Shown here: piece by piece, positions 11,101-30,712 of the stretch
Layout: each line of letters begins with the position of its first letter
Numbering within the stretch: the stretch's first letter is position 1
Position numbers and translations under genes: made by a program
Notes under the pieces: generated by a model
What the model was told of the DNA's origin: nothing
Seen by the model: the letters and a program-made list of their open reading frames with translations, nothing else
Databases searched by the model: none
IMG/VR virus record: IMGVR_UViG_3300030419_005747
Location: 1-35,306 of that record
Length of the DNA stretch: 35,306 nt
Origin: a virus
Lineage: Duplodnaviria > Caudoviricetes
Reading direction: 5' to 3' (one strand)

Positions 11101-11286
11101 ATGGTTGGCGGTAAGGAAAAGGAGTTTAAGGTCAGAGGCACATACCGATTGGTTAAAAGAGGCGGCTCAAAAAACTACGAAGCTGTCGATAAACACGGAC
11201 ATGGTGTCAAGTTAGGAACAAGCAGCCTTAAACTAGCTAAGAAACGAGCCGGACTGGCCATAAAGAAAATGGAAGAAACCAAATGA
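11101..11286 (+). CDS. small basic hypothetical protein (61 aa)
   Basis: Tightly packed in the operon; ATGA overlap with ahpC. Confidence 0.6.
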   Translation: MVGGKEKEFKVRGTYRLVKRGGSKNYEAVDKHGHGVKLGTSSLKLAKKRAGLAIKKMEETK

Positions 11287-11795
11287 TTAGTGTAGGCGAT
11301 TCATTCCCTGATTTTTTTCTAACAGGGGTTGACAAAGACAACAGTATTATAGACGTAAACTTCGACAGTTTGTCTGAGCATTGGAGTGTGTTTTATTTTT
11401 ATCCAAAAGACTTTACCTTTATCTGTCCCACCGAGATAGCTGAAATGGACAGGTTGGTGGACGAAGACGTGAATGTTATAGGGGTTAGTGGAGACAATGA
11501 GTTCTGTAAACTTAATTGGAAGCTGTCCGAACCTCTTATCGGAAGAATTAGACACGTTTTAGCTGCGGACTGTGGTTTATCCTTATCTGATGAACTTGGT
11601 ATCGTTGACCAACAGGAGGGGGTTTGCTTGAGAGCCACCTTTATTCTGGATCCAGAAGACATTGTTCAACATGTATCGGTCAATGCTTTGGACACAGGAA
11701 GAAACGTAGATGAAGTTATAAGAACGCTGAAGGCCCTACAATCAGGGGGCCTTACAGGTTGTTCTTGGTCCCCTGGCGATGAGTTTGTTGCATGA
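11283..11795 (+). CDS. ahpC: 2-Cys peroxiredoxin (AhpC/TSA family), auxiliary metabolic gene
   Basis: FYPKDFTFICPTE peroxidatic motif, RATFILDP, GRNVDEVIR, C-terminal resolving Cys (LTGCSW). Confidence 0.93.
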   Translation: MISVGDSFPDFFLTGVDKDNSIIDVNFDSLSEHWSVFYFYPKDFTFICPTEIAEMDRLVDEDVNVIGVSGDNEFCKLNWKLSEPLIGRIRHVLAADCGLSLSDELGIVDQQEGVCLRATFILDPEDIVQHVSVNALDTGRNVDEVIRTLKALQSGGLTGCSWSPGDEFVA

Positions 11796-12541
11796 AGAAC
11801 GAGATTCTTTTTTCGTCTCCCTATGAATACGCTGAACTTTCCCGTGAGACCACGGAGAAGGGGCGTGTTTATTTAAACGGGGAAGAACGACTGAGTTCTG
11901 TTACCACGATTCTTTCTAAAACCAAAGCGGAGAACGACAGTCTACAACAGTGGATTGAACGGGTGGGCAAGGAAGAAGCTGAACGCATACGAAACGAAGC
12001 GGCAGCTAGAGGCACCGAAATGCACGAGATTCTTGAAAGACAGTTAAAAGAAGGCAGCATTTGGGACTATTATCCAGAAACACCAGAGCAAAAGCGTGCC
12101 TATAAAATGGCCTGTACGATCATGGACCAAGGGTTTCCGTCCATTGACCAAGTGTACGGGTGTGAGATTCCTTTGTACTACCCAGGGAAGTATGCCGGCA
12201 CCGCTGATGTGATTGGTAGGCATTTAGGCGAAGAAGCTATCATGGACTTTAAACAAACCAACACACCTAAGAGACGAAGGCGCTATGTTTGGGATTATTT
12301 TCAACAACTCGCTGCCTATGCCATGGCACACAACGAAGTTTATGGCACCGAGATTAAGAAGGGTGTGATTATGATGTGCTCAGTAGATTGTTTTTATCAA
12401 GAGTTTGTTTTGGAAGGCAGAGAGTTTGAGCGCGCCGCAGAAGCCTGGAACACTCGGCTAGAAAAATTTATTCAGAGTATTCAGCCTCCTTCTCTCGAAC
12501 AATCTCAGCCTGAGGCTGAGACAGAAGAGGAAGGTTCTTAA
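11792..12541 (+). CDS. PD-(D/E)XK exonuclease (phage, MGME1/Cas4-like)
   Basis: SVTTIL, RGTEMH, YAGTADV...IMDFKQ, QLAAYAMA. Confidence 0.85.
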   Translation: MKNEILFSSPYEYAELSRETTEKGRVYLNGEERLSSVTTILSKTKAENDSLQQWIERVGKEEAERIRNEAAARGTEMHEILERQLKEGSIWDYYPETPEQKRAYKMACTIMDQGFPSIDQVYGCEIPLYYPGKYAGTADVIGRHLGEEAIMDFKQTNTPKRRRRYVWDYFQQLAAYAMAHNEVYGTEIKKGVIMMCSVDCFYQEFVLEGREFERAAEAWNTRLEKFIQSIQPPSLEQSQPEAETEEEGS

Positions 12542-15500
12542 AGTAATCATAGACTTCCACGAGAGCATCTATCGGAAAGAAACGCCCTGATGGCAATTGT
12601 TCTGCTTCTTCAATGGCCTCTGTTTGTTTATCAAAATCTTTTTTCAGGCTGGTTAAAGCAGCCCTGCTTTTAAGAGCAAGGTTTTCTTCGTTTCTAAGCA
12701 TCGCCCTTTGTTTGGCACTTAGTCGTTCTCTCTTGGTGTTGTCAAGAACAGCCTCCCTAATGTTTAATAGCTCTGCTGCTTTAAAGGTAGAGAAAATATC
12801 CTGATTAACAAAATAATTGGACTTCTGCATAGCAAGATAAGCGTCCAAGAGTTCTTGAGGAGTAACCGCTCCTTTGTTGTACACTTGTTTAGTAAAGATT
12901 TTTTCAGCGTCTCTTTGCTCGTTTAGTAGGTCCGTCAAAGCAAAACTTAAGCTGGAAGTAGGATTAACTCTACTGACTTTAATACCAAAGAAAGAAGCCA
13001 AGGCGTCTTCAAATTCTTGCTTGGTGCCAAAGCGATCGTAGGCTTTCTCCCCTTCTTGTGCACCACGAATCACTTTTTCAGTCGCTGACACAAAACCAGG
13101 AGCAACTCGGTCCCAGACATAATTAAGATAGGCCACGGACTCATCACCAACGCCGCCCAATGGTTTTCCTCTGCCCTCGGCCTCGTTCCAAATAGGTCGA
13201 CCAGTATTACTGTTTCTGTTTTGTGCTATGTCTAACATGGCTTGCATATAAATCGAAAGCTCCAGAAAAGGCTCAGAGAAATTCCCCATAGCCTCAGTGA
13301 TTCCAGAAACAACGGCATCCGACGTAGAGCGCCCTTCATCCATGGCTTTTGACGCTTCACTAAGAATAGTGGGAGCCATTTTTGCCAGATCGTCATAGAC
13401 AGCGATATAGCTTCCGTCAATAAAATCAAAACCACCGCCCTCTGCCTCGGTTTTTTTAGCGATTGGGATAATCAAATTGTTTTGTGCCCAATCCGGTAAG
13501 AACTTTCTTGCGGCCTCAATGTCCTCATCATCAATATCCGAAACAGCTTGTCCAATAGCTTGAGCCGCTGCACCTACTCCATACGCCGCTGTTCCATACC
13601 CTATAAATCGGGCTGCACCACGTTGTCTTATTGCAGAGTTGCTTGATTTCATTTCTATAAAACTTGTTTGTATAATATTGGCAGATGTTCTAACGATCTC
13701 CGTGGGAAAAGCAATAAAGTTTCCAAACACAGCAAGGGGTCCTGTTCTTAGTGTCTCTGCAAACTTACCTACATAGTCGTAGTTTGGAATGGTTTGTCTG
13801 ACATAAAACGCGGCCAACTCTTTTTGCGCCTGTTCAAAACTTTGCCTGTTGATTGTGTAAGACATGTCAAGGGCTTTAGCATGAGCTAAAAGCTGGTTAA
13901 AATCAGCTTCTGTAGGGAAAGCTTTTTTGACCGCCTGTAATTCAGACGCATAAGCCACCACCTTCCAAAAATCATCTGCCGCTGTATAAAAGTCTTCGGC
14001 CCGGCTGTACCACCGTTTAAGAGGGTTAGCTGTCGCAGCAACAAAGTCTCCTGGACCGTCAAAGATTCCGGAACTCGCCGTCCTCCAAGAGGCCAAAAGG
14101 TCCCCCAGTCTTACAGAAGTGTTCAATACACCAAGATCCAAAAGCTCTCGGTAAGTTTCTTGTGCGGCTTGTCTGGAAGTAATAGGTCTTCCTTGTTCAT
14201 CAACACCTTGTTTCCACAACTGATGGCCCACTACTTTCATGGCTTCTGGTAAATTTTTAAAGCCTATAAAGTGCCCATTACCGAGCACAAAAAGTGCCGC
14301 ACTTAAAAAGTTTCTAATTTGTGCCGGCGGACTTAAAACAATTTTCCCCAGTTGTATCCACGCTTTTGGAGCAACCACAAGGTTTCTCCAAACGCTGCTG
14401 TTGTTAAAACCTACAGCGGGGGATTCAGAAACAGCCAAAACTTCAGCCACTTCTTTGGTGGTGTACATACCTTCAAAAGGGTTATAGCCATCAGACGTAA
14501 CTTTAACTGTGAGACCGCTCTCTTTTGCAAACCAGTTGGGAGAGATTCCCTGAGTGTCTCCTTTGGGCACAGGCACCGGAGAAAATAAACGTTGACCAGG
14601 CATCGCGTTAAGCACAGCCATTCTCTGCCAAAACCGGTTGCTTTCAAGAACAGAAGACAAACGAGCAGTTGTGACCGCAGCAGCTTCTCCTGGGTTAGTT
14701 ATTTCTCCCATCAGAGCCCTAATTTCTTGGGGTATTCTGCGCCGTCTTTTTAATATTTTTTGAGTTGTGTCTGTAATCAAAGCCTCTTCTTCTGTTTGGG
14801 GGCTTCCTCTTCCAAAAATACCTCCCAATTCAGTGGCTTCTTGTTCTCCAATATAGCCTTGGCCTATTAGACGAATATCGTTTTCGATTTCGTCTTCGGT
14901 TTTTCCTCTTTTTCTTAGCAAAGCTCTAACGTCCGCAACTTTTTGTCGCATAACCTTTGCTGATTTAGTGGGCATTGTGCGGTTCCACCAACTCAAAGGA
15001 TCATACCCCCCGGCCGTTTCAAAAATTTGGTAAGAACGGGTCATATAAGAGCCGATGTTCTCTTCAATCACTTCTCTTAAAATCTTTCCACCTTTTTTAC
15101 TAGACAACACTTCTGCGGGAAGCTCTTTCAGCAAACGTTTGCTCATCATGTCAATAAAACTACGCAGTTCAATAAAAGGTTCTCGCAACGGCTCAGGAAG
15201 ATTGTTGGCCGCTTTGGAGGCACTAAGTTTTTTTATCTTACTGTAGTCCCCCTGTTGTTCTCCTATCATCTCCTCTATTTCTTTTAGGTCGCTTTCCCAA
15301 ATCATTAGTTGGGTTTCTTTGTTTCCTAAATTTTCTTTGGTGTTAAACCTTTGGAGCATTGCTTGTTGCGCTTCATTTAAGTTTTCGTATTTTATTTCCC
15401 CGCCCCTAAACAACGTTAAAAGGCTTATGTCCTTTTTAAGCTCTTTAATAGCGGCCTCCCTTTCTTTTCTTTGTTGTTTTAGTTCAGCTATTTCTTCCGG

Positions 15501-17846
15501 GGACCTTTTATACTTTATAAAGGTGCCTCTAAGTTGCTTGGTTATCGCCTTCTCCGCCTCTTCCTGGGTGGAATACATCCCTTTATCTACCGCGTGCGCA
15601 ATAGCAAGGTCCATAGTGGTCTTCATTTGTTCCGCCATTTTGTTCATGGCGCGAATCCGCCCTAGTCGGTCTCTTGACAACATGAAAGCTTCCCATCCTA
15701 ATGGTCCGCTTGGTGCGAACCAATATTTAAGGCCGCCCATTATGCCTCTAAAAAAATTAGCCGAACGAGACAGTTCCGGAGAAGCATCAAGCAGCAAGGA
15801 CCTAACTTGTGTATCTACTCGACCTTTATTTTTTGATTCTCTATATTTATTAAAAAGACCTGTGCCTCCAGTAACCTGTCCTTCTTTATTTGTTTTAATG
15901 TCTCTGGTTTCAAACCTAGTGTTGTCTCTGGTTTCCTGTACATTGTCGGTTTTGTTCAGTGTCTCATTGTCGTCTTCAAAAAAGCGTACGCCCACCGCTT
16001 CTCCCTCAATTCCGGTTTGTTCTTTTACATAATCTTCCCAAGTCTGAGGATTTGCTACGGCTTTTTGGGCCTCCTCAAACTTACCTTTTTCAACAAGAAT
16101 ATAGTTTCCGTCTTGGGCCAAGCTCATTGGACCCATTTTTTTAATTCGTCTTTTGGTTCTCCTTGAAAAACCTTGGCCCACCAAAAGATTTTGTAGCCTT
16201 TCGTTTTGCATGTTCATAGCAGTATCATGGTTCATAATCATTTGGGCCATTTCTCTATTAGTGGCTGTTTGTTTTTTTCCTTTTTTTCTAATGGAGGAAG
16301 CAAGTCCCCGTTTTTTAAGCTGTTTTTGAAGAGTCTTGCGGCCTTCTTCCTCTAACAGCCTTAGTCCTGCTTCGTATTCCGCTGTCTGTGCTGCGGCATA
16401 AACAATGGAGGCGCCCCCGGTCAACGCCCTGCTTTCAATTAGCTTTTGGTTAAGTATCTTATTAATAACTGCTTCTTTGTTGTCTTTTCTACTAACCTGA
16501 ATTAACCGTATTGAGGGACCATGCTCCTGTTCTAAAACAAAGCTCTTTGCTTCTTCTAATAATGCTTTTTCGTCTAGCTTTCTTAACTCCTCCCTATTTT
16601 TAGCCCGGTCTATTTTTTCTTTTGCCGTAAGGGCACCAAAGTTTTCTAGGTGATAGTTATGTCGCAATTGGGACTGTCTCTCTTGTACCTCATCCTCGGT
16701 CAAAAGATTTATAAGACTTTTATCGCTGGCGTTTTTTCTTGCTTTCAGGTTTCTACGTTCCGCTTCTTCTCTTAATTGTTCAGAAGACATTTTTTGCCAA
16801 GTTTCTCCTGCAACATTAACTTCTTTTTCCACCTGTTCTCTAATCTCGTCATATCTCTGTTTTACTTCTCGCTCACTTTTCTTTCTCTGATTAACACCGT
16901 ATTGACTGATGGCCCCGGACACACTACCTAGTGTTCCACCACCAATGCTTCCTAACAAGAAAGCGTTGAGCAAAGAACTTTGCAGTTGCCCTTCTTCACT
17001 GGCCAAACCGGTTGCGGCTTCAGCCATAAAGTCCTCGATCCCTTCTTGCGACGCTTCTGTGGCACCTTCCATTAAAGAAGCCTTCACCGCTTGCGCCACT
17101 GCCGCTTTAGCCACGCCCTTCTCTACCCCTTCGGCCACCAATTTATCGGTGACTTCTTTAAGGGTTGTTTTCTTTAAAAGAACCGGCATTAAAGGTTTAA
17201 GACCAAAGGCAATTGAAGCAACGTCTAGGGAAGCAACCATGGCTCCTCCTGCCATTGCTGCGCCAGGGGATTCAAAATCTTCCCCGGCTCTGGCTTTCAT
17301 TTCACGATCTACCTCACCGGTACTGAGTATAAAAGAAGGAAGGAAAGCACCCAAAGCACCGCCTAATAAACCACCAACCGCGGTTCCGGCGGGTCCAGCA
17401 AAGGTCCCCAAAGCGGCTCCCGCCTTGGCTCCCCCAATAGCTGTGGGCATAGAAACAGCAACGGAGGGAAGGATTTGTGCCATTCCTTGTTTAATAAAAG
17501 TCATGGCATCGCCCAAGTCTTCCACTTCTTCGGCAATCATGGGACGCCCACGTTTGGCTATTTGTTGATCGTTAAAGGCAACGCCGCGATTACCGGCATC
17601 AACTAATCTTTCTGAGTCGAACACTTCGCCCAACACACGCACGCCAGCCCAACCACTTGCTTGTAGTTCGTCAACTGTTCTACTTAATACGGAGCCAAAG
17701 CCCTCGTCTCTTGGGTCGCCGGAGATGGGAGTAGTTGTTTCCTCTAAAGGAGAAAAGGGATCATATTCTTGTTCTTCTAGTGCAACAAAAGGATCATAAA
17801 CCGACTCTTGTTCTTCTTCTAGCGCGGCAAAAGGATCATAAGACAT
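12468..17846 (-). CDS. large internal virion / DNA ejection protein (1792 aa)
   Basis: Last and largest gene of the late arm; Gly/Ala-rich hydrophobic N-terminal segments, helical charged body; occupies the podovirus ejectosome position. Confidence 0.7.
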   Translation of the reverse strand: MSYDPFAALEEEQESVYDPFVALEEQEYDPFSPLEETTTPISGDPRDEGFGSVLSRTVDELQASGWAGVRVLGEVFDSERLVDAGNRGVAFNDQQIAKRGRPMIAEEVEDLGDAMTFIKQGMAQILPSVAVSMPTAIGGAKAGAALGTFAGPAGTAVGGLLGGALGAFLPSFILSTGEVDREMKARAGEDFESPGAAMAGGAMVASLDVASIAFGLKPLMPVLLKKTTLKEVTDKLVAEGVEKGVAKAAVAQAVKASLMEGATEASQEGIEDFMAEAATGLASEEGQLQSSLLNAFLLGSIGGGTLGSVSGAISQYGVNQRKKSEREVKQRYDEIREQVEKEVNVAGETWQKMSSEQLREEAERRNLKARKNASDKSLINLLTEDEVQERQSQLRHNYHLENFGALTAKEKIDRAKNREELRKLDEKALLEEAKSFVLEQEHGPSIRLIQVSRKDNKEAVINKILNQKLIESRALTGGASIVYAAAQTAEYEAGLRLLEEEGRKTLQKQLKKRGLASSIRKKGKKQTATNREMAQMIMNHDTAMNMQNERLQNLLVGQGFSRRTKRRIKKMGPMSLAQDGNYILVEKGKFEEAQKAVANPQTWEDYVKEQTGIEGEAVGVRFFEDDNETLNKTDNVQETRDNTRFETRDIKTNKEGQVTGGTGLFNKYRESKNKGRVDTQVRSLLLDASPELSRSANFFRGIMGGLKYWFAPSGPLGWEAFMLSRDRLGRIRAMNKMAEQMKTTMDLAIAHAVDKGMYSTQEEAEKAITKQLRGTFIKYKRSPEEIAELKQQRKEREAAIKELKKDISLLTLFRGGEIKYENLNEAQQAMLQRFNTKENLGNKETQLMIWESDLKEIEEMIGEQQGDYSKIKKLSASKAANNLPEPLREPFIELRSFIDMMSKRLLKELPAEVLSSKKGGKILREVIEENIGSYMTRSYQIFETAGGYDPLSWWNRTMPTKSAKVMRQKVADVRALLRKRGKTEDEIENDIRLIGQGYIGEQEATELGGIFGRGSPQTEEEALITDTTQKILKRRRRIPQEIRALMGEITNPGEAAAVTTARLSSVLESNRFWQRMAVLNAMPGQRLFSPVPVPKGDTQGISPNWFAKESGLTVKVTSDGYNPFEGMYTTKEVAEVLAVSESPAVGFNNSSVWRNLVVAPKAWIQLGKIVLSPPAQIRNFLSAALFVLGNGHFIGFKNLPEAMKVVGHQLWKQGVDEQGRPITSRQAAQETYRELLDLGVLNTSVRLGDLLASWRTASSGIFDGPGDFVAATANPLKRWYSRAEDFYTAADDFWKVVAYASELQAVKKAFPTEADFNQLLAHAKALDMSYTINRQSFEQAQKELAAFYVRQTIPNYDYVGKFAETLRTGPLAVFGNFIAFPTEIVRTSANIIQTSFIEMKSSNSAIRQRGAARFIGYGTAAYGVGAAAQAIGQAVSDIDDEDIEAARKFLPDWAQNNLIIPIAKKTEAEGGGFDFIDGSYIAVYDDLAKMAPTILSEASKAMDEGRSTSDAVVSGITEAMGNFSEPFLELSIYMQAMLDIAQNRNSNTGRPIWNEAEGRGKPLGGVGDESVAYLNYVWDRVAPGFVSATEKVIRGAQEGEKAYDRFGTKQEFEDALASFFGIKVSRVNPTSSLSFALTDLLNEQRDAEKIFTKQVYNKGAVTPQELLDAYLAMQKSNYFVNQDIFSTFKAAELLNIREAVLDNTKRERLSAKQRAMLRNEENLALKSRAALTSLKKDFDKQTEAIEEAEQLPSGRFFPIDALVEVYDYFKNLPLLSQPQAEIVREKEAEYSE

Positions 17847-17847
17847 T

Positions 17848-20199
17848 TTATACCCCGCGCCATGCTTCTACTATAGTCCTACTCGTATGTTTTTTGTTGT
17901 TACCACTTCTATCTATAAACGTTGTTCCTATTAAGCTTCTATAAAGCTCAATGAAATTCATCTCTTTTCCTTTAATAGTTTTTGTTCCTTCTAAACCTGG
18001 GCCGAGAACGCCTTGGTCAAGTATATACTGAGCATTTACATCTCCGCCCAGCATCATAGTCTCGATTGCGTCTTCTTTGCTCACTGTGTCTTTCCCCCTG
18101 CTTTTCAAAAGGTCTGCCCAAATAGCCGCTGGCCTACTAGAACTCGGGTCTGCTCCACCAAGTTCAATTTTAAGTCTTTCAAGGTCCATGGCCATTTGGT
18201 TTTCAATTTGCGATTGAGCAAGAGCAGCTTCGGCATCTAACATAGACTTATCAATGTTTGAAAGAATCTCGTATTGCTTAAGCTTTATGTCATACAATGC
18301 TTTAACGTCTCGGTCACGTCTGGCTTCGGTTTCTTGTTTCCTTAAGTTCTCAAACTCTATTTTGTTTCGGTTGTTTTGTTGAAAACGATCCTGCTCAAAG
18401 CTTTTACGCAACAAGTCTTTCTTCACAGCCGTTGCTCCAGAGCCCACTGTCTGTGTAGGGGTACTAAGTGCCCTATATCTTGCTTGTTCCGGAATCCTTC
18501 GCTCAATGTCGTCAAAAATCTTTCGCATGTTTTCGTCTTGTTTCTTGGCATCTTCCCCGTAGTCTTTGATGCTTTGGTCTAAGATAGATGTTATGCCTTC
18601 AATACTTTTTTCCGTGGTTCCTTTTAATGTTTCCGCTTTTTCTTTTACACCGGCCAAAGGATCGCCTTGTTGCATGAGTCTAATAAGCTCAAGAGCCGTT
18701 TCCTCACTATACCCGGCTTGTTTCGCAGCGTTCAGTACGGCGGCTATGTCTTCCCCGGACCCTTGGAAAGAAAGACCTTGGTCCCCGGACCCTTGTCCTC
18801 CTGGTAAACCTCTTTTCTGCGCGGTAACTTCGATCTCTTCTATAGGAGACTCTTCTATAGGAGGAGCCATCATTTCTTGGTATTGGGTAACAATGGCCCT
18901 GGTCCTCGGATCTTTAAGTATTGAGCTTACTCCCCCGGTTTGCCCAACTTTAGTCATAAACCCTGATTTACGAAAACCTTCTGTGCCTTTAATAGCGTCC
19001 AAGAGTTCTTGTTTTGCTTTTTCTTCGGGGGTAATTTCTTTTCTGCGCTCTTCTAATAACTCTTCATAAGACAGCCCCTCTATTCGTCGTCGTTCTGCGC
19101 CCGGCAAAGAAAAGCCGCCTTTTTGTTCCTCAACTAATTTTTTTATTTGCGCTATATCGGGCCCGTATTTTTTAACCATAAGCTCTTCAGCGGTTTCCAA
19201 AGAAACGCCCTCGTTCCTTATGTCTTCATCTATCCAAGCCCATTCATCCGACACTTCTCCTCCGTCTTGATACCCTGGAATCAGTCCGCCGTTCTTCGCC
19301 ATTACAGCGGTGTCCATTAACGGTTCTTCGCTGCCCACTTCGGGGACTTGGAAAATAGCCACGAGTTCTTCACGATAAGGCATAAGATCATCGCTGCTGA
19401 TTAGGTTAGCGTCTGCCGGGACTTCTGGATACTTTTCCGTTATCTCGTTTTCAATCCGTCTTGCAGATCGTGCAAGATCGTCCATGCTGCTTTTAATAAT
19501 AAAGGAAGGACTGTTCCCGGTGGCCTCTTCCGCTTTAGCGGTGCTTTTTAATATGTTAAATTCTTCGTCTAAGCGGCCCTGCGCTTCTTGTTTTGCCATT
19601 GCCACGATTGGTTCATCGTCTTCAACTTCTTCGGCGTCCAAGGCCAGTTCAATAATACCTCTTTCGTTAGGCACATTTCTCTCAGGCATAGCTTCTGGCG
19701 CAGGCGCAGCGGAAACCGATGCAATACCTGGTCCTCCTTGTGCGGCCATTGCGTTTATCATTGGATTGGTTTCTACAATTTCTTCGCCTTCAAACAACTC
19801 AGGCATCATGCCGCCATTTTGTAGGCCGACGATGCCCCCTGTTCTCATTTTAGGTGCACCTCTTTGTGCCTCTATGGCTTTCGCCAAGTCCTGCATGACT
19901 TGTTCTTTAGGAACCTGGTGCCCACCGGCAATGTTCTTAGCGTGCCAGTGAATCTCCGACTCATAGTCTCTAGGCAAACGGAAACGATTCGGGTCACTCG
20001 ATGAAAAAAGACGCGCTGTTTTTTCTATTTCCTTTTGATATTCCGCTTCTTTAGCCAACTGTTCTTGTCTGTACGCAGGCATTTCTTCGACCACGCTTCC
20101 TTGCTCGTACCCAGGAATACCTTTAGGCATGCCCACAAAACCACCGCCCATCATGTTGTGGGGGTTTTTAAACAGTGGTCGTTGACTCCAGCCCGGCAT
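17848..20199 (-). CDS. putative ejection/internal virion protein (783 aa) with a TonB-box-like motif
   Basis: Position between pilot-like and large ejection genes; repeated xxGG motifs; IEEIEVTAQKR at 18811-18843. Confidence 0.65.
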   Translation of the reverse strand: MPGWSQRPLFKNPHNMMGGGFVGMPKGIPGYEQGSVVEEMPAYRQEQLAKEAEYQKEIEKTARLFSSSDPNRFRLPRDYESEIHWHAKNIAGGHQVPKEQVMQDLAKAIEAQRGAPKMRTGGIVGLQNGGMMPELFEGEEIVETNPMINAMAAQGGPGIASVSAAPAPEAMPERNVPNERGIIELALDAEEVEDDEPIVAMAKQEAQGRLDEEFNILKSTAKAEEATGNSPSFIIKSSMDDLARSARRIENEITEKYPEVPADANLISSDDLMPYREELVAIFQVPEVGSEEPLMDTAVMAKNGGLIPGYQDGGEVSDEWAWIDEDIRNEGVSLETAEELMVKKYGPDIAQIKKLVEEQKGGFSLPGAERRRIEGLSYEELLEERRKEITPEEKAKQELLDAIKGTEGFRKSGFMTKVGQTGGVSSILKDPRTRAIVTQYQEMMAPPIEESPIEEIEVTAQKRGLPGGQGSGDQGLSFQGSGEDIAAVLNAAKQAGYSEETALELIRLMQQGDPLAGVKEKAETLKGTTEKSIEGITSILDQSIKDYGEDAKKQDENMRKIFDDIERRIPEQARYRALSTPTQTVGSGATAVKKDLLRKSFEQDRFQQNNRNKIEFENLRKQETEARRDRDVKALYDIKLKQYEILSNIDKSMLDAEAALAQSQIENQMAMDLERLKIELGGADPSSSRPAAIWADLLKSRGKDTVSKEDAIETMMLGGDVNAQYILDQGVLGPGLEGTKTIKGKEMNFIELYRSLIGTTFIDRSGNNKKHTSRTIVEAWRGV

Positions 20200-21158
20200 T
20201 AAGTAACACCTAAGTTTTTAAAGAGCTCGGCAATAGTCGTAAAAGGACTGGGGTTCTGGTTTGGATTCCATACCGTACTGATCCCCGTTGTTGGCCCTTG
20301 TGGGAACATTCCCTGCATCATACTGGCAAGGAACTGCATTCTTTGGTAAGGCTCTTTGGCCAATTGAGAAGCAGCATCGTATTGTGAACCGTACATAGTG
20401 TCTTGTATGCCTCTGGCCGTTTGTCCGAGACCGCCTAGTGACGCCATTTGATTACGCAACAACTGTTGTCCCGTTTGTCCGAGGCCCATGATCCCTTGTC
20501 CAAGTTGCCCGTACATTTGTGCGCCTTGCATACCCAGTTGTCCTGCCTGTTGCATTCTTCGTTGTTGGTCAGCAAAAGCGTTTTGAGCTTGCTGTTGTGC
20601 TTGAGAGTATCCTTGTGCCCGCATTTGTCCGGCTGTGCCCGACATGCCTCTGCCTAATTGTTTAAAACGTTCTTCTGCCATGAGTCGTCCACGACCGCTG
20701 CCAAACGCACCGGCATCCACGGCTTGTGCCCTACTTCCTATGTCTTGTTGTGCCCAGTTCTCATACACGTCATCAAGCGACTTTTGCACCGCCATGTCTT
20801 CATAGGGGTTATAAAAAGCTTTGCCCATGCTTGGGTCATACGCTTGTGCGCCCATGTACCCGGCCTGTGTCCCTTGGCCCAGGGCCCCGAGCCCTTGTCC
20901 GTAAGCACCGCCCGCTTGTTGTAGGTAAGGTTGGAAACCGCCCAAACCCCCACTGAGAGCCCGCGCTTGCATTTCAAACGGGTCTAATCCGGCCACGCCT
21001 CGTTGTGGAACAGGCATAGGCTGACGGACCAGGTTCATTAAGTTATCAAAGAACCCGCGTCGATACTGCTCGACCCAAGGGGCTTCAAACCCTATCGTAC
21101 TTTGAGGCCCATAAGGTCCCGAAATATTAGGGTCTACATCATCATATCCGTTGCTCAT
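20199..21158 (-). CDS. putative DNA transfer/pilot (ejection) protein (319 aa)
   Basis: Gln/Gly/Ala-rich helical protein with FYNPY and GAFGSGR motifs typical of podovirus DNA-transfer proteins; TAATG coupling. Confidence 0.7.
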   Translation of the reverse strand: MSNGYDDVDPNISGPYGPQSTIGFEAPWVEQYRRGFFDNLMNLVRQPMPVPQRGVAGLDPFEMQARALSGGLGGFQPYLQQAGGAYGQGLGALGQGTQAGYMGAQAYDPSMGKAFYNPYEDMAVQKSLDDVYENWAQQDIGSRAQAVDAGAFGSGRGRLMAEERFKQLGRGMSGTAGQMRAQGYSQAQQQAQNAFADQQRRMQQAGQLGMQGAQMYGQLGQGIMGLGQTGQQLLRNQMASLGGLGQTARGIQDTMYGSQYDAASQLAKEPYQRMQFLASMMQGMFPQGPTTGISTVWNPNQNPSPFTTIAELFKNLGVT

Positions 21159-22255
21159 TATCCTATCCCCATTTGTTCTGCTTGTTTCATTAGTTTATAC
21201 AGTCTCTTTGCCCCTATATTATCCGTTGCTTTTTTAGTAAACACAAATTCTCCCGGTTCAAGGAAGGCTGGAGTGATGTCCCCATGACTTTTAAGGCCCA
21301 TAATTCCCCCTTGATTACCGCCCTCTATTTCTTCTAATAAAGGCATGCCCGAAACGTGTGTGGCTGCGGGCATTGTTGTTCCTTTTGGCATGGCGTATTT
21401 TTGCCCTTGAAGAATGTTTGGTCCTAGCCCCTGCATTACCATGCTTTCCTTGGAAGGCAAGCCCCATTGTTTTCCTATCGCGCTTTGTGCTGCCATTTGC
21501 CCAGTTGGGACCTTGTATTTATTATAGTCATCAATTGCTTTCTTAGATTTTACTATCTCAAACAATTTTTCAAACCAACTAAGCTCTTCATCGCCTCCAC
21601 CTAGCCCTTCCCAACCTAACAAAGAACCAAGACCCGCTATACCCCCTATACCAGATAAAATTGAGCTCCAGTCAATTCCCGACGACATCGAATCTGGTTG
21701 TGTTCCCGTGACCGTTATCTCTTCAATCGTTTCGTTATCAGCGGGAGTGCCTGGGCTTTCATCAGGGATAGCCTCCCAGCCATCACCAAGCCCCCAAACA
21801 CTCCAAACGTATTTTATGCCGTCCTTAATGACCTGCATTCCCTCTGTCGGATTTTCTGGAAACTTTTCAACAACGGTTATTTCATCTATTGTGTCTGTTC
21901 CTGTCTCTGTTCCTGTTCCTGTTATTTCTTCAATTGTTTCGTTATTAGCAGGACCTCCTGGGGTTGTCTCTGTTCCCGTGCCTGTGCTCGCTATGACATC
22001 TGCGTAACCACCAAGCACAGAATCGTCATTTTCTACGCCAGTAGTGTCATCAGCCCCTGCTTGAGCATATTGTTCTTTCCACAGGTCTCCGTATTTTATC
22101 CATTCTTCGGGACCCATTGGGCCTCTATGGCCCAATACGTCTATGATATATTTAGCAAACTTGATCGCGTCCATGGGCGTCATAGTTGCAGGCATACCTA
22201 AACTTTCAACTGTTGGTAGCTCGTTTTCAAAAGGGTTTGTCATTGCATTTGACAT
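21158..22255 (-). CDS. putative ejection/internal virion protein (365 aa) with repeated TonB-box-like motifs
   Basis: C-terminal GDITPAFLEPGEFVFTKKA...GAKRLYKLMK domain; three (E/D)TI(E/D)EIT repeats; one Gly-rich hydrophobic segment. Confidence 0.65.
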   Translation of the reverse strand: MSNAMTNPFENELPTVESLGMPATMTPMDAIKFAKYIIDVLGHRGPMGPEEWIKYGDLWKEQYAQAGADDTTGVENDDSVLGGYADVIASTGTGTETTPGGPANNETIEEITGTGTETGTDTIDEITVVEKFPENPTEGMQVIKDGIKYVWSVWGLGDGWEAIPDESPGTPADNETIEEITVTGTQPDSMSSGIDWSSILSGIGGIAGLGSLLGWEGLGGGDEELSWFEKLFEIVKSKKAIDDYNKYKVPTGQMAAQSAIGKQWGLPSKESMVMQGLGPNILQGQKYAMPKGTTMPAATHVSGMPLLEEIEGGNQGGIMGLKSHGDITPAFLEPGEFVFTKKATDNIGAKRLYKLMKQAEQMGIG

Positions 22256-23321: not shown

Positions 23322-23648
23322 TTATAGGATTGGGACCGTGGTTGCACCGTTTGTTGATACGGTTAAATCGCCAAGTTGTCCCGTGGCTTGCACGCCTTTT
23401 CCACTAGGCGAGTATAATGTTTGCCACTTCTTGCCATCAAAAACTTGCAGACTGTCTTCTGTCAGGTTCCAAATGACGTCTCCGCGACTAAATAAGTTTT
23501 GATCGCGGGTTGTGTTAGTATACTGATAAGTTGCCGTGGGATCAAAGCCTTGTAGGTTTAATTCTAGGATTCTTACCAATCTGTTAAATAAATCTGAGTC
23601 CACCTCTCCTAAAGCGGTGGGTAAACGTGTGTCTAATAGTCTTGCCAT
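23322..23648 (-). CDS. small virion structural protein (108 aa)
   Basis: Coupled to the tail protein gene; GDVIWN...LQVFDGKKW module typical of tail proteins. Confidence 0.65.
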   Translation of the reverse strand: MARLLDTRLPTALGEVDSDLFNRLVRILELNLQGFDPTATYQYTNTTRDQNLFSRGDVIWNLTEDSLQVFDGKKWQTLYSPSGKGVQATGQLGDLTVSTNGATTVPIL

Positions 23649-25540
23649 TATCTTCTCCCGTCTGGTCGAGTGTTGAGTCGCATGGCCCCGAGCCGCCAGC
23701 CCACGCCAAGCCTTACACCGGTTGACGCGTCATCGTCTGATTCTAAGCGAACCACGGCTTGTCGTGCTCGTCCTCTTAAATCAACCTTAGTCGTGCTCGC
23801 CGTTACTTGGTTGGTGCTCTTAGTGGTTAGTGTTTCGTTAGGAAAGTTTCTTGTTTTTAACACAAAATTCACCGCTTGATCTGAGCCTCCGTCCCCTAAA
23901 AACCGAACATCGGGTATGGCGTTTTGTATTTGGGTATAGCTATTGCCTATGGCATCCAGCGCAAAATCAGCCGATTCAATATAAACATTGTCCATGGGGG
24001 AGCCGTCCGCATCGTTTCCGGTTTCGTGTTTATAGACATAATTGTTTGTGTCTACTCCGGTTGCTCTCGGATAAGGCTGTACCCCTTCATCCAACCACGC
24101 ATAACGGACAAGCTCTCCATAATACCAAACCTGTTCTTGGTAGTTATAGACCACATAGCGATCTATTTCATCGGAGCTTCCCGAAGGATAAAACCATCCG
24201 ACCTCGTTGAACTGTCTGTTTAAATAGCCAAACGTTTTGAAAGACTGGTTTTGGTTAAAGTCATTAAACACATAGCTGTGCACACTACAAGGAAGTCTTT
24301 CGACCGTTCCGCTATATCTGTAAAAGCCCGAACGATCCATCCAAAAAACACCCGGAGGCGCGTTGACCGCAGCTTTAGGCGAAATCATGCCAACCCCTTG
24401 ATTAATTAGATTAACTCCAAAAGTGTAAGGAGGACCAATAAACTGCATACTGTAAAGTGCATCATCTGTCCAAATCAGTATTTCTTGCCGTGAGCGAAGA
24501 CCGCCGACAATTTGAGTTCCCGCCGAGAGCCTTAGTGAGCCGGCGGTGTTTGTAAGCTTAGGTTCCCACTGAGTAATATCTTCTTGGTCACACCAACAAA
24601 TAAACATGGGGTCAATAACACTTGTTCTAGCTGTTCCACCAGCATTTAAAGGGTCTGCGCCCAAACAAATAACGTGTCGGTCAATATCACTTACCAAGGT
24701 TTGCAGTGCCAGTGTTGGCGGCAAGTTGGCGCCGATAGACGAATCACTTAGGCTCTTGGCCCTGACGCTCGTTCCGTTGTCCTCGGTCCAATAAAAAATG
24801 TCCCCTGCTCTTGGATTCATAATAAGGTCTTCTCCAAAATTATCGTGTGTCCATAACCTTAACTGGTTGTTAAACGCCAGTGCGGAAGCCGAACCAAAAG
24901 TTCCGTCGCCCCATGTACTAGCGCCATAACCTGAACCAGACACATAATCATCGAGGCCGACATTAATCTGATAGGCCCCAACCACACTTGACCCACCATT
25001 ACCGCTGTCACTGCTGTTAGCTGTTACGGTGTCCCCGTCAGTGTCTTTGGCTTCAATGGTGTAGCTGTTAGCATTAACAATGGTTGCGATCTGATATTCT
25101 TGGTTTAAAACATTAGCAATAATATTGCCGCCCAAACTAGCGGCACCGCTAAAGGTGACAAAATCATTTTGGCTTGCGCCATGGGCCGTGTCCGCTACGG
25201 TGATCGTAGCGTCCCCGTTGCTCGCTGAAAACGTTACGTCCCCCGCCGAAGTCGTGGCTCTTATAGGCGTTATATCGTAGAAACTGGTTCCGTCTTTGAC
25301 GTAATACTTTAAAGTGGTTCCAAGCCCCAGATATTTGGTGCCGCCTAAAGACACCCAAGCATGGAGAGCACGTCCCGTTCCCAAATAAGTATCGGTTTGC
25401 TCTTTAGCCCAGCCACCTATTTTTTGAGGAAACCCTTTTTTAAACCGTACAAGATTACTGTCAAACCAGCCTCCCTGAGCGGAAAAGGCGGTTCCTTCTC
25501 GGTTTATTCCTGGGACCATTTCAAACTTAGCGTAAGGCAT
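23648..25540 (-). CDS. tail tubular B / DNA stabilisation protein (P22 gp10-like beta-propeller)
   Basis: PGINRE...GGW.D.NLVRF...P.KIGGW start, beta-rich repeats, WRLG..R...PDGRR end; podovirus gene position. Confidence 0.8.
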   Translation of the reverse strand: MPYAKFEMVPGINREGTAFSAQGGWFDSNLVRFKKGFPQKIGGWAKEQTDTYLGTGRALHAWVSLGGTKYLGLGTTLKYYVKDGTSFYDITPIRATTSAGDVTFSASNGDATITVADTAHGASQNDFVTFSGAASLGGNIIANVLNQEYQIATIVNANSYTIEAKDTDGDTVTANSSDSGNGGSSVVGAYQINVGLDDYVSGSGYGASTWGDGTFGSASALAFNNQLRLWTHDNFGEDLIMNPRAGDIFYWTEDNGTSVRAKSLSDSSIGANLPPTLALQTLVSDIDRHVICLGADPLNAGGTARTSVIDPMFICWCDQEDITQWEPKLTNTAGSLRLSAGTQIVGGLRSRQEILIWTDDALYSMQFIGPPYTFGVNLINQGVGMISPKAAVNAPPGVFWMDRSGFYRYSGTVERLPCSVHSYVFNDFNQNQSFKTFGYLNRQFNEVGWFYPSGSSDEIDRYVVYNYQEQVWYYGELVRYAWLDEGVQPYPRATGVDTNNYVYKHETGNDADGSPMDNVYIESADFALDAIGNSYTQIQNAIPDVRFLGDGGSDQAVNFVLKTRNFPNETLTTKSTNQVTASTTKVDLRGRARQAVVRLESDDDASTGVRLGVGWRLGAMRLNTRPDGRR

Positions 25541-27097: not shown

Positions 27098-27232
27098 CTA
27101 ATAATATTTTGTTACTTTTCTTCTGTCGTTCATTACCGCACCACAACCCTTTGCAATGCCCGATTTTATTGGGCTTTTAGCCTTTCCTCCACGGGGCGTT
27201 TTCTTTCCCGATTTAACTGACTTTACTTTCAT
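27098..27232 (-). CDS. small basic peptide (44 aa)
   Basis: Not in the ORF track. MKVKSVKSGKKTPRGGKAKSPIKSGIAKGCGAVMNDRRKVTKYY; ATGA coupling to the upstream stop; fills the gap almost exactly. Confidence 0.7.
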   Translation of the reverse strand: MKVKSVKSGKKTPRGGKAKSPIKSGIAKGCGAVMNDRRKVTKYY

Positions 27233-29565
27233 AGCTTAGGCTGCATATCCATTAAATTTTTCATTCCAGTTAAACTTTCGCCATATAAACCAACAAATGC
27301 CGAAGTATTATCCGGTATGGATACATTACCATAAATTGCTTTTGGTTCATACCACTCGGACGCGTCCGCTAGAGTTACTTGCCTGTACGCACTAAAGCCA
27401 GGTACATAGCCCATATAGGCAACAAGTTGGCTGGAATCACCGTATTCCCCTGTTTCCTGCTGCTCTTGCTCTAGCTCTTCTTGTTGGTTCTGTATGTTTT
27501 GGGCCACAATTTGATCGGCAATCTGGTCTGCTTCACTTGCTGTCATGCCTCCTGAGACCGCCGTATCAATTTGACCCTGCATGTCTTGTACTTGTGCATC
27601 GGTGCCTGTTGTTTGTGCGCCCCCTACCGTTGGCATAAGGTCTACGGAAACAGAAGCATCGGCAGTAGAGGTCATGGTGTCCGTGGTCCCCGGTCCTTGG
27701 TCCGTGGTTGTTGTTTCTGTGTCCATGGTCCCCGAACCACTGAACGAGGAGCTCCCTGCATCAGCAGCGCTCATAGACAAAATTTGTTGTGTTTGCGCAG
27801 CCGAACTCGCAACCTGAGCAGAAATACTTGGTGAGTTATTTGTGCTTATAGAGCCACCGGATACCGAAGACACTACAGCGGTAGCTTGGGAACTAGAAAC
27901 GCTCGTAGAGCCGCCATAAGAGCCCCCAGACGAGGCTGAGGTTCCCGTTGCCTGTGCAGAAGTCCCAGAAGTGGTACCGCTTACACTGTTTGTCGCTGCC
28001 CTAATGGTATTAGCAACAACATTTAATTGTTCGGCTTTTTTGTTGTCCTTCTTGGTTTCATTCTCTGCGACAGCAATTTCGACAGCTTCTTCTCTGTCCT
28101 CGCTCTCTTCTTCAACTGCCTCCGTATCCTCCAATTCTCCATCTTCATCCTCAGATAAAGCAGCAATATTTTCAGCTTCCTCTTGCTCAACCCATTCCTC
28201 CAATTCTTCTATGGTTTCAAACTCTAAAAATTCAACGGCTTCCTCTTCAAAAAACTCTTCTATAAGCTCTTCGTGTTCAAAGTGGTCCAATAAAACGGTG
28301 TCTATTTCTGGAAGATCGTAGTCCACGAACAAAAGGTCTTCCTCATAAAACTCTTCAAAAATAAACACCTCTTCAACGTAGTCGAAGACAAGAGCCTCCT
28401 CTTCAAGGAAAGCCTCCAATTCTTCCACAAACACTGGTTCTTCAAAAAATGGCTCGAAATACTCCTCCTCAAAAAAAGGCTCGAAATACTCCTCTTCTTC
28501 AAAATAAGTCTCTATTTCCCATGGCTCATCAAGAAAACTATCCACTCCTTCATAGTAGTAATCCTCTTGGAAAAACTCGTCTTCATAGTACGAACCGTCT
28601 GCAAAATAAGTGCTTTCATCTTCATAACCATATTGGTCATAGTCGTCTTCATATCCATACATGTCCTCGTATGCGTTGTAAATTTCATACTCTACCACAT
28701 ACCCTGGACACGCGGGGGAGTGTTGTGAGTCCAAAGTACATTCATAATCAAATAAGTCGTCCCAATAATTAGGGCACTGAGTAGAATACAGTCCATCTAA
28801 ATCACATTGCTGTGTCAAGTACGCAGCAGCATATCCGGCACAAGCAGTGTTGTTTAAAGGGTTGCTACAATCAAGAGCGTTCCCAGAGCCTAGGCCATAT
28901 AAAGAACCGCCGTTTTCCAATAAAGTGTTTGCTGCCGTGGCGTTCCAATTGGTGTTGACACAAGTGCCTGCTACATTCGTTGTGCCAGTGCTACATTCGT
29001 CATGGAACAAGTAAGTGTATAGTTCGTCCGCTGCACCTTGTTCTCCAATTAATACATCGTGGTTAATAATATTAAGAGCGCCATAACGATACTCAAAGCT
29101 GTCATCTGCTTTCCACAACACAACTTCAAAACTATTATCTGTGTTGCTTCTGTTATATTCTCGTAAGTTATACCACCCAAAAACTGTTTTATCGGTAAAA
29201 TTCTTAGCTAAAACCTTTGATCCATTATCTCTTATTAAGTCAGTCCAGAAAGGATAGAGGGTATATGTAATTTCAGGTAAAGGATCAGGTGTGTAGTCAT
29301 TACAATAGCCTCCTGACGACCCAAAATGTAGGCACCCATTAGTAGCCATTCGTGCAGTAGTAAAATCCTCGCCATAAAAAGTAAACGTAAAATCTAGTGT
29401 AAAGGCTGAAGATACTTGGTCATCACCAACAGCCATATTAGTAGTGTTTTGCTCATTGACTAGATTAAAAAGGCTTTGATCTGCCTCGTATACATAAATT
29501 GCATTAAGTGTAGAAGCAAATAAAAGAGCCGATAAGCTAGCTGCCTTTATTAAACTCTTTAACAC
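27229..29565 (-). CDS. secreted multidomain protein (778 aa): nidogen(NIDO)-like beta domain, Cys repeats, acidic-aromatic tract, Ser/Thr-rich linker
   Basis: Signal peptide MLKSLIKAASLSALLFASTLNA; GDD...FTFTFYG...TNG...PFWTDL...FEVVL resembles NIDO-like domains; three Cx8-9CxxY repeats; E/D/F/Y-rich tract. Confidence 0.75.
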   Translation of the reverse strand: MLKSLIKAASLSALLFASTLNAIYVYEADQSLFNLVNEQNTTNMAVGDDQVSSAFTLDFTFTFYGEDFTTARMATNGCLHFGSSGGYCNDYTPDPLPEITYTLYPFWTDLIRDNGSKVLAKNFTDKTVFGWYNLREYNRSNTDNSFEVVLWKADDSFEYRYGALNIINHDVLIGEQGAADELYTYLFHDECSTGTTNVAGTCVNTNWNATAANTLLENGGSLYGLGSGNALDCSNPLNNTACAGYAAAYLTQQCDLDGLYSTQCPNYWDDLFDYECTLDSQHSPACPGYVVEYEIYNAYEDMYGYEDDYDQYGYEDESTYFADGSYYEDEFFQEDYYYEGVDSFLDEPWEIETYFEEEEYFEPFFEEEYFEPFFEEPVFVEELEAFLEEEALVFDYVEEVFIFEEFYEEDLLFVDYDLPEIDTVLLDHFEHEELIEEFFEEEAVEFLEFETIEELEEWVEQEEAENIAALSEDEDGELEDTEAVEEESEDREEAVEIAVAENETKKDNKKAEQLNVVANTIRAATNSVSGTTSGTSAQATGTSASSGGSYGGSTSVSSSQATAVVSSVSGGSISTNNSPSISAQVASSAAQTQQILSMSAADAGSSSFSGSGTMDTETTTTDQGPGTTDTMTSTADASVSVDLMPTVGGAQTTGTDAQVQDMQGQIDTAVSGGMTASEADQIADQIVAQNIQNQQEELEQEQQETGEYGDSSQLVAYMGYVPGFSAYRQVTLADASEWYEPKAIYGNVSIPDNTSAFVGLYGESLTGMKNLMDMQPKL
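28442..28495. repeat. 27-bp tandem duplication (EEEYFEPFF x2)
   Basis: Two units identical at 25 of 27 positions. Confidence 0.85.
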
Positions 29566-30712
29566 AAGTGCCTCTAGTTTTTCTAAGCCCCTCTTCGTTC
29601 AATGTACCTCTACATTTACTTACATAACTATCTTTAGCTTCTTTATAGTCCGGTCGGTCTTTAGGGTTAGCTGCCCAGGCTACCTTTGCCTCGTCGCCTA
29701 TCTTTCCAAAATAAGGACAAGGAGTGCCTGCCATCATCATAGATTTAAAAACTCGTGGGTCTAAGCACAGTACAGACACCGCCGCTACCTTCATTCCAGT
29801 GTCATAAAGATACTTAGAAAGCTTTAGCCTTTCACAGTTTTCGTCTCTAACTGTTCTACCCGCAGAGAGTCCAAAGACCTGTCCTTGAAAGGCTCCAGAT
29901 CGACCAACCGTACACAGATCCTGGCTGTAGCTCATAATGCTGGGCGCAATGGCTGAAGCAGGAGGCGCCTCGGTCTTAATGTTCTGATTAATGGTTTGTT
30001 CGCTCTTCGACTCATTAATATTTCTGTTTGTGTTGTCAGAGGTGTTTCTGTTCTCGTTCACGTTTTTATTGTTTGTGGTCACATTCGATTCAGAAGTCGA
30101 CTGATTTACATTCGTGTTTTTGTTCTCACTGGTCGAAGTATTTACATTCGTGTTGGTGTTGCTATTGGTACTTGTACTTGTACTGGTGTTGTTATTGTTG
30201 TTTGTGTTGGTACTTGTACTGGTGTTGTTATTGTTTGTTGAAACACTCGATGTTGATGTCGATGTGTTGGTGTTCACATTGTTATTGGTGTTCGTCGCTG
30301 TTGACGTCGAGGTGTTGGTGTTTGTATTAGTATTAGTATTCGTATTCGTACCAGTTGATGTGCTTGTGTTTACGTTTGTATTGCTATTGGTGTTTGTCGC
30401 AGTCGACGTACTGGTGTTGTTATTGGTATTGGTGTTCGTATTCGTATTCGTATTGGTGTTCGTCCCAGTCGACGTCGTGGTTGTCGTATTGGTGTTAGTG
30501 TTAGTGTTTGTATTAGTGTTAGTGTTAGTGTTAGTGTTCGTATTGGTGTTCGTATTGGTGTTGGTAGTCGTCGTGGTTGACGTGGTTTCTAAAGAGTTTT
30601 GCTCACAGTATTGGGACCCTGCTGTGCAGTCGCCGGTTTGATCCGCGCTAACATTCGTTGCTACAAGCAACAAACCTAGCCAAATCGCTCCAAAAATGCC
30701 CCATTTTTTCAC
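29537..30712 (-). CDS. secreted Thr/Asn-repeat protein with Cys-rich conserved C-terminal domain (391 aa)
   Basis: Signal peptide ending VSA; ~190-aa (TN)n/(ST)n region; C-terminal PPASAIAP...DLC...DENCERLKL...VLC...GTPCP. Confidence 0.8.
   Translation of the reverse strand: MKKWGIFGAIWLGLLLVATNVSADQTGDCTAGSQYCEQNSLETTSTTTTTNTNTNTNTNTNTNTNTNTNTNTNTNTTTTTSTGTNTNTNTNTNTNTNNNTSTSTATNTNSNTNVNTSTSTGTNTNTNTNTNTNTSTSTATNTNNNVNTNTSTSTSSVSTNNNNTSTSTNTNNNNNTSTSTSTNSNTNTNVNTSTSENKNTNVNQSTSESNVTTNNKNVNENRNTSDNTNRNINESKSEQTINQNIKTEAPPASAIAPSIMSYSQDLCTVGRSGAFQGQVFGLSAGRTVRDENCERLKLSKYLYDTGMKVAAVSVLCLDPRVFKSMMMAGTPCPYFGKIGDEAKVAWAANPKDRPDYKEAKDSYVSKCRGTLNEEGLRKTRGTCVKEFNKGS
30100..30585. repeat. coding low-complexity hexamer repeat (ACN AAY, Thr-Asn)
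   Basis: Runs such as gtgtta/gtattc/gtattg with synonymous variation. Confidence 0.9.

Follow-up and report, generated by a model that had tools for sequence, protein, structure and literature searches.

Does a tailed phage carry, on a protein that it would eject into its host, a TonB box of the kind found in bacterial receptors? The question is raised by IMG/VR virus record IMGVR_UViG_3300030419_005747, a linear record of 35,306 bases that is about 57% complete, that is, a fragment (hereafter the window, meaning the whole stretch of DNA analysed). A minus-strand gene of the window encodes a 783-amino-acid (783-aa) protein, in which the original prediction, made from the sequence alone, had noted the TonB-box peptide IEEIEVTAQKR at 18811..18843. 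The peptide is indeed present, as residues 453-463. Judged from sequence, the box is a real, selected and widespread mimic; the mechanism in which it would take part is put forward as a proposal. The features of the gene are the following.

17848..20199, minus strand: 783-aa helical protein, likely a periplasm-spanning ejection protein (gene order, helical model, absence of a signal peptide)
18811..18843, minus strand: TonB-box-like peptide IEEIEVTAQKR, residues 453-463 (profile score, synonymous change)
18751..18867, minus strand: predicted disordered loop, residues 445-483, displaying IEEIEVTAQKR (AlphaFold2 coil, pLDDT below 50)
18835..18863, minus strand: 14-nucleotide (14-nt) direct repeat of period 15, doubling the PIEE lead-in (sequence)

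Likeness to receptor TonB boxes

A DNA pattern for EE[IV]xVTA[QKR]KR was run on 1/64 of the GTDB collection and returned 121 loci. Nearly all of them lie 25-80 residues from a start, behind a signal-peptide-like stretch, and the Plug domain (PF07715) is found downstream of the pattern in 118 of the 121. One of the three loci without Plug is truncated by a contig end and another is a vWA protein. A bacterial vWA-domain protein with a box-like peptide and no Plug domain is seen at locus L126.

Two SAR86-order genomes have 27 Plug loci between them, with orthologues repeated; 26 went into a profile and one, with a broken frame, was excluded. The boxes were picked by the Plug domain, independently of the motif under study. 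When the profile was run over 10,569 positions in the 27 open reading frames (ORFs) of the window, IEEIEVTAQKR scored 16.6 bits and ranked second, and ranks 1 to 4 all fell within two cluster genes, those for the 783-aa protein and for a 365-aa protein described below. This score was reached by none of 1,500 whole-protein shuffles and none of 20,000 local shuffles. The SAR86 receptor boxes themselves gave leave-one-out scores of 10.4-31.0, a range within which 16.6 bits lies toward the low end. In a background of 796 ORFs that surround phage AhpC genes, 233,268 aa in all, three matches of at least 13 bits were found, two of them from the family studied here; as controls, the reversed sequences of the same background gave three matches and the shuffles 0.7. 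The Plug context in GTDB and the SAR86 profile score uphold the claim that the peptide is of the TonB-box type, and at the level of sequence it is a non-random TonB-box look-alike.

Setting of the peptide in the 783-aa protein

The AlphaFold2 model of the 783-aa protein consists of long helices; the box lies within a coil whose predicted local distance difference test (pLDDT) value is below 50 at residues 445-483; the predicted template modelling score (pTM) is 0.28. The flexibility and accessibility expected of a TonB box are thus seen for this loop in the AlphaFold2 prediction only, and the low-complexity linker noted earlier holds as a predicted disordered loop. The box had also been described as built partly from a 12-nt duplication. 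The unit CCTATAGAAGAG does occur twice, at 18861-18850 and 18846-18835 on the minus strand, as a portion of the longer 14-nt repeat of period 15; only the PIEE lead-in is doubled, and the box itself was not built in this way. The duplication was ruled out as the origin of the box, since homologues have the box without it.

No signal peptide was found in either the 783-aa or the 365-aa protein, and the N terminus of the former is not hydrophobic. The 783-aa protein gave no family match in Pfam or PHROGs, and no Plug beside the box. A BFVD fold search with its model found nothing at E <=0.001, PDB sequences searched with a profile of the family yielded coiled-coil noise only, and an exhaustive profile search with the family collected 24 representative proteins, none of them annotated.

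Selection on the peptide among homologues

Of 47 homologues of the 783-aa protein, 40 were aligned; those set aside were the window protein itself in three copies, two that were short and two near-duplicates. LEEIVVTAQKR, identical to the receptor consensus at every letter, stands in three homologues with 38-39% identity. Among 10 box-bearing loci, compared in 45 non-independent pairs, 161 of 247 differing box codons are synonymous. Amino-acid identity at the same loci falls from 83% within the box to 23% and 19% in the 11-residue flanks, a contrast that is partly circular because the rows were selected by the box; the synonymous excess is less affected. The sequences indicate that the box is under selection, its amino acids being retained while codons change.

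Recurrence in other viruses

A strict pattern of the box was found at 14 loci in IMG/VR, and its reversed form at two. Entry-type proteins (ejection-cluster, lysozyme- or transglycosylase-bearing, and tail-tip proteins) from six lineages account for 12 of the 14 loci, versus 0 of the two reversed ones. Five loci belong to the 783-aa family, one of these being a copy of the window protein, and three represent a 1656-aa lysozyme-bearing protein with 11 copies of the box. Single loci encode a 358-aa protein with three boxes, a virion protein adjoining a baseplate hub with two, a T4-like protein of the tail-tube family whose box is N-terminal, and a protein that bears a transglycosylase and two boxes. 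The two loci of the 14 that remain after these lie in head proteins and are chance-like. Set against the reversed pattern as control (14 versus 2 loci), the motif is enriched in virion-entry proteins, an outcome in favour of the original prediction, which had asked for such a comparison. By sequence, the same peptide type recurs, frequently as arrays, in unrelated podovirus, siphovirus and T4-like entry proteins, tape-measure proteins among them.

In the 1656-aa protein as seen at L036:716-5686, an N-terminal lysozyme is followed by 11 tandem boxes with differing codons. At myovirus-like loci (L042:4980-5885, L190:2430-5364 and L038:721-2280), tail-tube-family proteins have boxes at their ends, and adjacent baseplate or lumen proteins have them too.

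A second box in the 365-aa protein

The highest score of the window belongs to a peptide in the 365-aa gene, which sits two genes upstream of the 783-aa gene and whose box, like two weak look-alikes in the same gene, was overlooked by the original prediction.

21158..22255, minus strand: 365-aa likely ejected protein; remote homologues have a LysM peptidoglycan-binding domain (PF01476 on many weak matches)
21698..21727, minus strand: second TonB-box-like peptide, IEEITVTGTQ, residue 177 (20.2 bits, the best of the window)
21905..21934, minus strand: degenerate copy IEEITGTGT, residue 108, without the core Val (9.7 bits)
21860..21889, minus strand: weak and doubtful look-alike IDEITVVEKF, residue 123 (9.3 bits)
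21611..21685, minus strand: Gly-rich hydrophobic segment right after IEEITVTGTQ, a possible membrane-inserting stretch (hydrophobicity)

The reading of all three look-alikes as good boxes was rejected, the score being high at residue 177 only. The structure model of the 365-aa protein is of low confidence (mean pLDDT 43); in it, IDEITVVEKF lies as a strand beside residues 141-163, possibly within a small beta domain. The segment at 21611..21685 holds the most hydrophobic 19-mer of the protein (1.26). Five proteins of the 365-aa type (from the window, L184, L199, L201 and L233) have a Gly-rich hydrophobic stretch about 10-15 residues past the box, and no such stretch follows the box of the 783-aa protein. 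In sequence, the box with its hydrophobic stretch possibly resembles a handle plus a membrane-inserting segment. A score of at least 13 bits was reached by 13 of the 49 close homologues; among the 71 remote ones there was none. The presence of LysM in place of boxes in the remote homologues suggests that one variable middle region may accept interchangeable envelope-gripping modules.

The ejection gene cluster

The best matches of the window's DNA polymerase A are HTVC023P-type podoviruses (49-54%). The minus-strand cluster runs in the order 630-aa tail hub, 108, 339, 365, 319, 783 and 1792 aa, and three further members are relevant here.

23648..25540, minus strand: 630-aa tail hub or stabilisation protein in the gp10 slot, opening the cluster (phrog_3287, E 6e-70)
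20199..21158, minus strand: 319-aa Gln/Gly-rich protein in the gp7 slot (weak match to phrog_4287, DNA ejection protein, E 9e-4)
12468..17846, minus strand: 1792-aa large virion protein in the gp16 slot, without a box (phrog_6958, virion structural protein, E 4e-31)

Relatives of the 630-aa protein carry the annotation stabilization protein, and the 1792-aa protein is absent from the top 15 SAR86-profile scores. The gammaproteobacterial phage DSL-LC04 has the same cluster layout, with a final gene annotated as DNA transfer protein. In a pairwise comparison the 319-aa protein is 35% identical to the syntenic 294-aa product of DSL-LC04; a tblastn search with it among cultured phages found no match, and profile and BLAST comparisons of the 783-aa protein with the syntenic 645-aa and 1068-aa proteins of DSL-LC04 gave no significant alignment. 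The 783-aa gene, lying downstream of the tail hub, is the middle one of the trio of ejection genes, and because of this gene order it is assigned to the P22 gp20 slot. By analogy, the 783-aa protein is likely ejected into the host envelope.

Two side observations concern this part of the window. Short GG-containing repeats (AKNGGLI, YQDGGEV, FQSGGRV) are found across the cluster proteins between 17848 and 23276 and are a possible shared packaging or cleavage signal. On the minus strand at 27229-30712, adjacent genes encode a 778-aa protein that is very acidic and one of 391 aa that has long repeats of Thr/Asn, both with signal-peptide-like starts; neither has a Pfam match, and they are possibly host-surface proteins.

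The host

A clue to the host comes from a gene outside the cluster.

11283..11795, plus strand: AhpC peroxiredoxin, host clue for SAR86 (identity to SAR86-order genes)

Among 151 genomes from the same order as a SAR86 genome, three have chromosomal genes with 64-70% identity to the phage AhpC; in 401 genomes sampled across the phylum the identity is 51% at most. The phage AhpC belongs to a large viral clade with 119 IMG/VR relatives (L399-L478 among the loci). In a quick tree with 16 of 80 viral loci, the three SAR86-order genes (L318-L320) nest among the viral ones; phage-to-host transfer is therefore possible, and the clade may infect other hosts. The SAR86-like host that the original prediction had hinted at from the box thus receives independent, moderate support from AhpC.

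Of 61 SAR86-order genomes, 60 share one TonB type, and two genomes of the order have 13-14 Plug genes each. Three such genomes (L329-L336) have two TonB paralogues, each in an exbB-exbD-tonB-TPR operon. To our knowledge, SAR11 largely lacks TonB. SAR86 is described as rich in TonB receptors in the available part of PMC3358033.

Points against a TonB-directed box

Several observations weigh against the reading of the peptide as a selected TonB box on an ejection protein of a SAR86 phage. The assignment to SAR86 is favoured by the sequence data by a modest margin over other hosts, and it is indirect. The ejection role of the 783-aa protein is inferred from gene order and lacks homology support. 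The box is central (residue 453 of 783) instead of N-terminal before a plug and barrel as in receptors, and bacteriocin boxes, like those of receptors, lie near the N terminus in the available text of PMC12927319. Position 5 is Glu here, a residue found at this position in 0 of the 26 SAR86 boxes and 0 of 147 receptor boxes overall; all 121 GTDB boxes have Val, Ile, Thr or Leu. According to section 4.2 of a review (PMC11658791), box activity is governed more by local structure than by side chains, and for this reason Glu may tune the binding and not abolish it.

The distribution of the box is patchy. It occupies the equivalent site in just 17 of the 40 aligned homologues, down to 38% identity; where present, it is more conserved than its flanks, the comparison that the original prediction had proposed as a check. 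Scores of at least 13 bits were reached by 15 of 44 homologues of the 783-aa protein (shuffles 0.2%). Gains and losses of the box number 10 on the N-terminal tree, 8 of them forced by starred branches, and 9 on the C-terminal tree, which is a quick tree; the two trees disagree, and the 783-aa gene is therefore mosaic. Both genes are complete through the box sites at 10 distinct loci, 9 of which have a box of at least 9 bits in either gene. Among these 10, L483 has no box at all and L495 weak boxes only; at L490 and L497 the box is in the 365-type gene and not in the 783-type gene. No box was seen at the partial loci L491, L496 and L502 of the sister subclade, at 17 more distant loci (L010-L026, many of them partial) or in four cultured relatives including DSL-LC04. 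From one relative to another the handle appears, disappears or changes place between two cluster genes, and hence is accessory. Because the box is optional (17 of 40, and missing from some whole clusters), TonB cannot be the essential entry engine of the 783-aa family.

Looser patterns are less discriminating. IEEIxVTG was found at 68 loci versus 47 for its reverse, so most matches are due to chance, and on these counts it was rejected as a diagnostic pattern on its own. Its matches fall in tape-measure or ejection-type proteins at 17 of 68 loci versus 3 of 47 reversed ones (Fisher p 0.012), a comparison of non-independent loci whose protein classes were sorted by hand, with some doubtful calls. 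A third pattern gave 30 loci, a count without a reversed control, including two more tape measures and additional ejection-type proteins; nine of the 30 are one small unannotated protein. These nine (L239 and 8 related loci) form a family of 112-aa phage proteins with KEVEVTAEKK near the C terminus, representing either chance or a second class of box carriers.

Proposed mechanism and alternatives

Judging from the gene order and the P22 model, the proteins of the gp7, gp20 and gp16 slots and the 365-aa protein would leave the head through the short tail after adsorption. The loop at residues 445-483 is predicted to lie open to the periplasm, each channel having several copies of it if the dodecameric P22 gp20 is a guide. 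TonB's C-terminal domain would grip the box by beta-strand addition, as the sequence suggests by its likeness to receptors and group B bacteriocins. In the least certain step, the proton-motive force would act through ExbBD to move the protein toward the inner membrane and hasten completion of the DNA channel. The known binding mode of TonB boxes is parallel beta-strand addition to TonB beta3 (PMC11658791 section 4.2), and pyocin S2 and klebicin C are described as imported by TonB pulling on their own boxes (PMC12927319; PMC11658791 section 4.10). It is probable, given the sequence, that the box binds TonB; whether an energised pull via TonB-ExbBD is its role, as an accessory handle, is evenly balanced. 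Direct pulling of DNA by TonB, which had also been suggested, finds no support here.

The box might instead bind TonB as a periplasmic anchor near the inner membrane, without an energised pull. Such a passive tether would draw on identical sequence evidence (Plug context, profile score, synonymous excess). A central, multicopy box is in keeping with it, arrays with as many as 11 boxes would serve avidity no less than ratcheting, and P22 channel assembly is described without TonB or proton-motive force in the available part of bioRxiv 2026.09.03.749273. We consider the tether unlikely: TonB-box engagement transmits force in every case described in the accessible text of PMC12927319 and PMC11658791, and the Gly-rich hydrophobic stretch past the box in five 365-aa-type proteins fits directed membrane delivery, a point that is not decisive.

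A further alternative is that TonB has no part, the peptide being a beta-strand with a part in assembly inside the phage, or else a neutral look-alike that happens to lie in an acidic linker. The patchiness of the box and its Glu are compatible with this, and bulk scans do yield short acidic strand motifs by chance. That 0 of 21,500 shuffles attain the score and that synonymous changes are in excess within the box makes it a rather improbable explanation; nor is the exact receptor wording in unrelated podovirus, siphovirus and T4-like entry proteins easily explained through a phage-internal partner.

The original prediction had allowed that the box jams TonB. Delivered boxes would then act as decoys that occupy TonB, so that competitor phages, bacteriocins or uptake depending on it are blocked. 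Inhibition of TonB function is reported for TonB-box peptides that are brought into the periplasm, and a consensus peptide lowered phi80 infection, but only above 100 uM (both in the available text of PMC9841981). The 783-aa and 365-aa proteins have no signal peptide and would reach the periplasm as virion copies only, P22 injecting about 12-30 copies per ejection protein according to the accessible part of PMC8402733. Known exclusion at TonB receptors works via lipoproteins such as Llp, as far as PMC9586334 was available. Jamming is accordingly unlikely, since just a few virion-delivered copies could enter the periplasm, and because the inhibition by peptide required such concentrations the decoy is weak and has a slim chance at most.

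A decaying relic of a captured host receptor gene, which the mosaic 783-aa gene and the occurrence of degenerate box versions might recall, is highly improbable: the box has no flanking receptor sequence (no Plug), its amino acids are retained despite codon change, codons differ among copies inside arrays, and the synonymous excess already disfavours it.

Significance

An energised, accessory handle on TonB, the proposal preferred here, would bear on the power source for the trans-envelope channel assembly of short-tailed phages. That tailed phages of TonB-rich bacteria have repeatedly evolved TonB boxes on injected proteins and use TonB-ExbBD for the DNA channel is a tentative generalisation, which we hold at somewhat less than an even chance. 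If true, it would add a colicin-style, general and undescribed host-powered step to entry, in podovirus ejection, siphovirus tape-measure and T4-like tail-tip proteins. The TonB dependence of phages has so far been ascribed to the box of the receptor; were the box encoded by the phage, it would be the virion itself that meets the motor. Mimicry of the bacteriocin kind would then reach tailed phages too, and the box could serve to mark, in sequence, hosts with many TonB receptors, SAR86 being one. No report of phage-encoded TonB boxes was found in the literature searched, from which subscription papers were largely absent and supplements wholly so.

Comparison with known systems

The closest cultured relatives are the HTVC023P-type podoviruses, which share the DNA polymerase A (49-54%), the tail hub and the cluster layout. 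The cultured members tested have no box, whereas the phage described here carries one, has AhpC and probably infects SAR86.

The genes of P22 gp20 and T7 gp15 have the same position, downstream of a gp10-like hub and flanked by a gp7-like gene on one side and a very large virion gene on the other. The two proteins too are helical, and 783 aa falls within the tabulated range of 430-980 aa (available part of PMC8954989). P22 gp20 is a dodecamer spanning the periplasm as a channel (bioRxiv 2026.09.03.749273, abstract and section 7). No sequence or fold match between them and the 783-aa protein was found, and TonB is unmentioned in the accessible portions of PMC8954989 and bioRxiv 2026.09.03.749273.

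The g3p of filamentous phages is similar in being a virion protein that directly contacts an envelope force transducer; it reportedly binds TolA via a folded domain. It differs in that the Tol and not the Ton system is used, through a folded domain and not a short linear mimic, by a non-tailed phage.

Phages T1 and phi80 are tailed phages that need TonB and the proton-motive force for infection (available text of PMC11658791), but their described box belongs to the receptor FhuA, whereas here it is encoded by the phage. In the same source, the FhuA box mutant I9P is still sensitive to T1 and phi80, and V11D or deletion of the box abolishes the energy-dependent functions.

With the TonB boxes of receptors such as FhuA and BtuB (121 from GTDB and 26 from SAR86-order genomes) the phage box shares the sequence pattern and a predicted flexible, exposed setting. 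It differs by its Glu at position 5 and by lying centrally in a 783-aa helical protein without signal peptide, plug or barrel.

Like the group B colicins, pyocin S2 and klebicin C, the 783-aa protein is a foreign protein with its own TonB box in a disordered, here predicted, stretch. Klebicin C enters via a channel other than a TonB receptor (PMC11658791 section 4.10), and colicin B is able to bring single-stranded DNA into the periplasm, according to the accessible part of bioRxiv 2021.05.11.443673. Unlike these bacteriocins, the 783-aa protein comes with neither a toxin or receptor-binding domain nor an immunity gene by Pfam and PHROGs, and its neighbours are virion genes; its box is not N-terminal, is dispensable among relatives, and would travel through the phage tail channel. 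On its sequence, the phage box is neither that of a receptor nor that of a bacteriocin, and it would act like a group B bacteriocin handle placed on an ejection protein.

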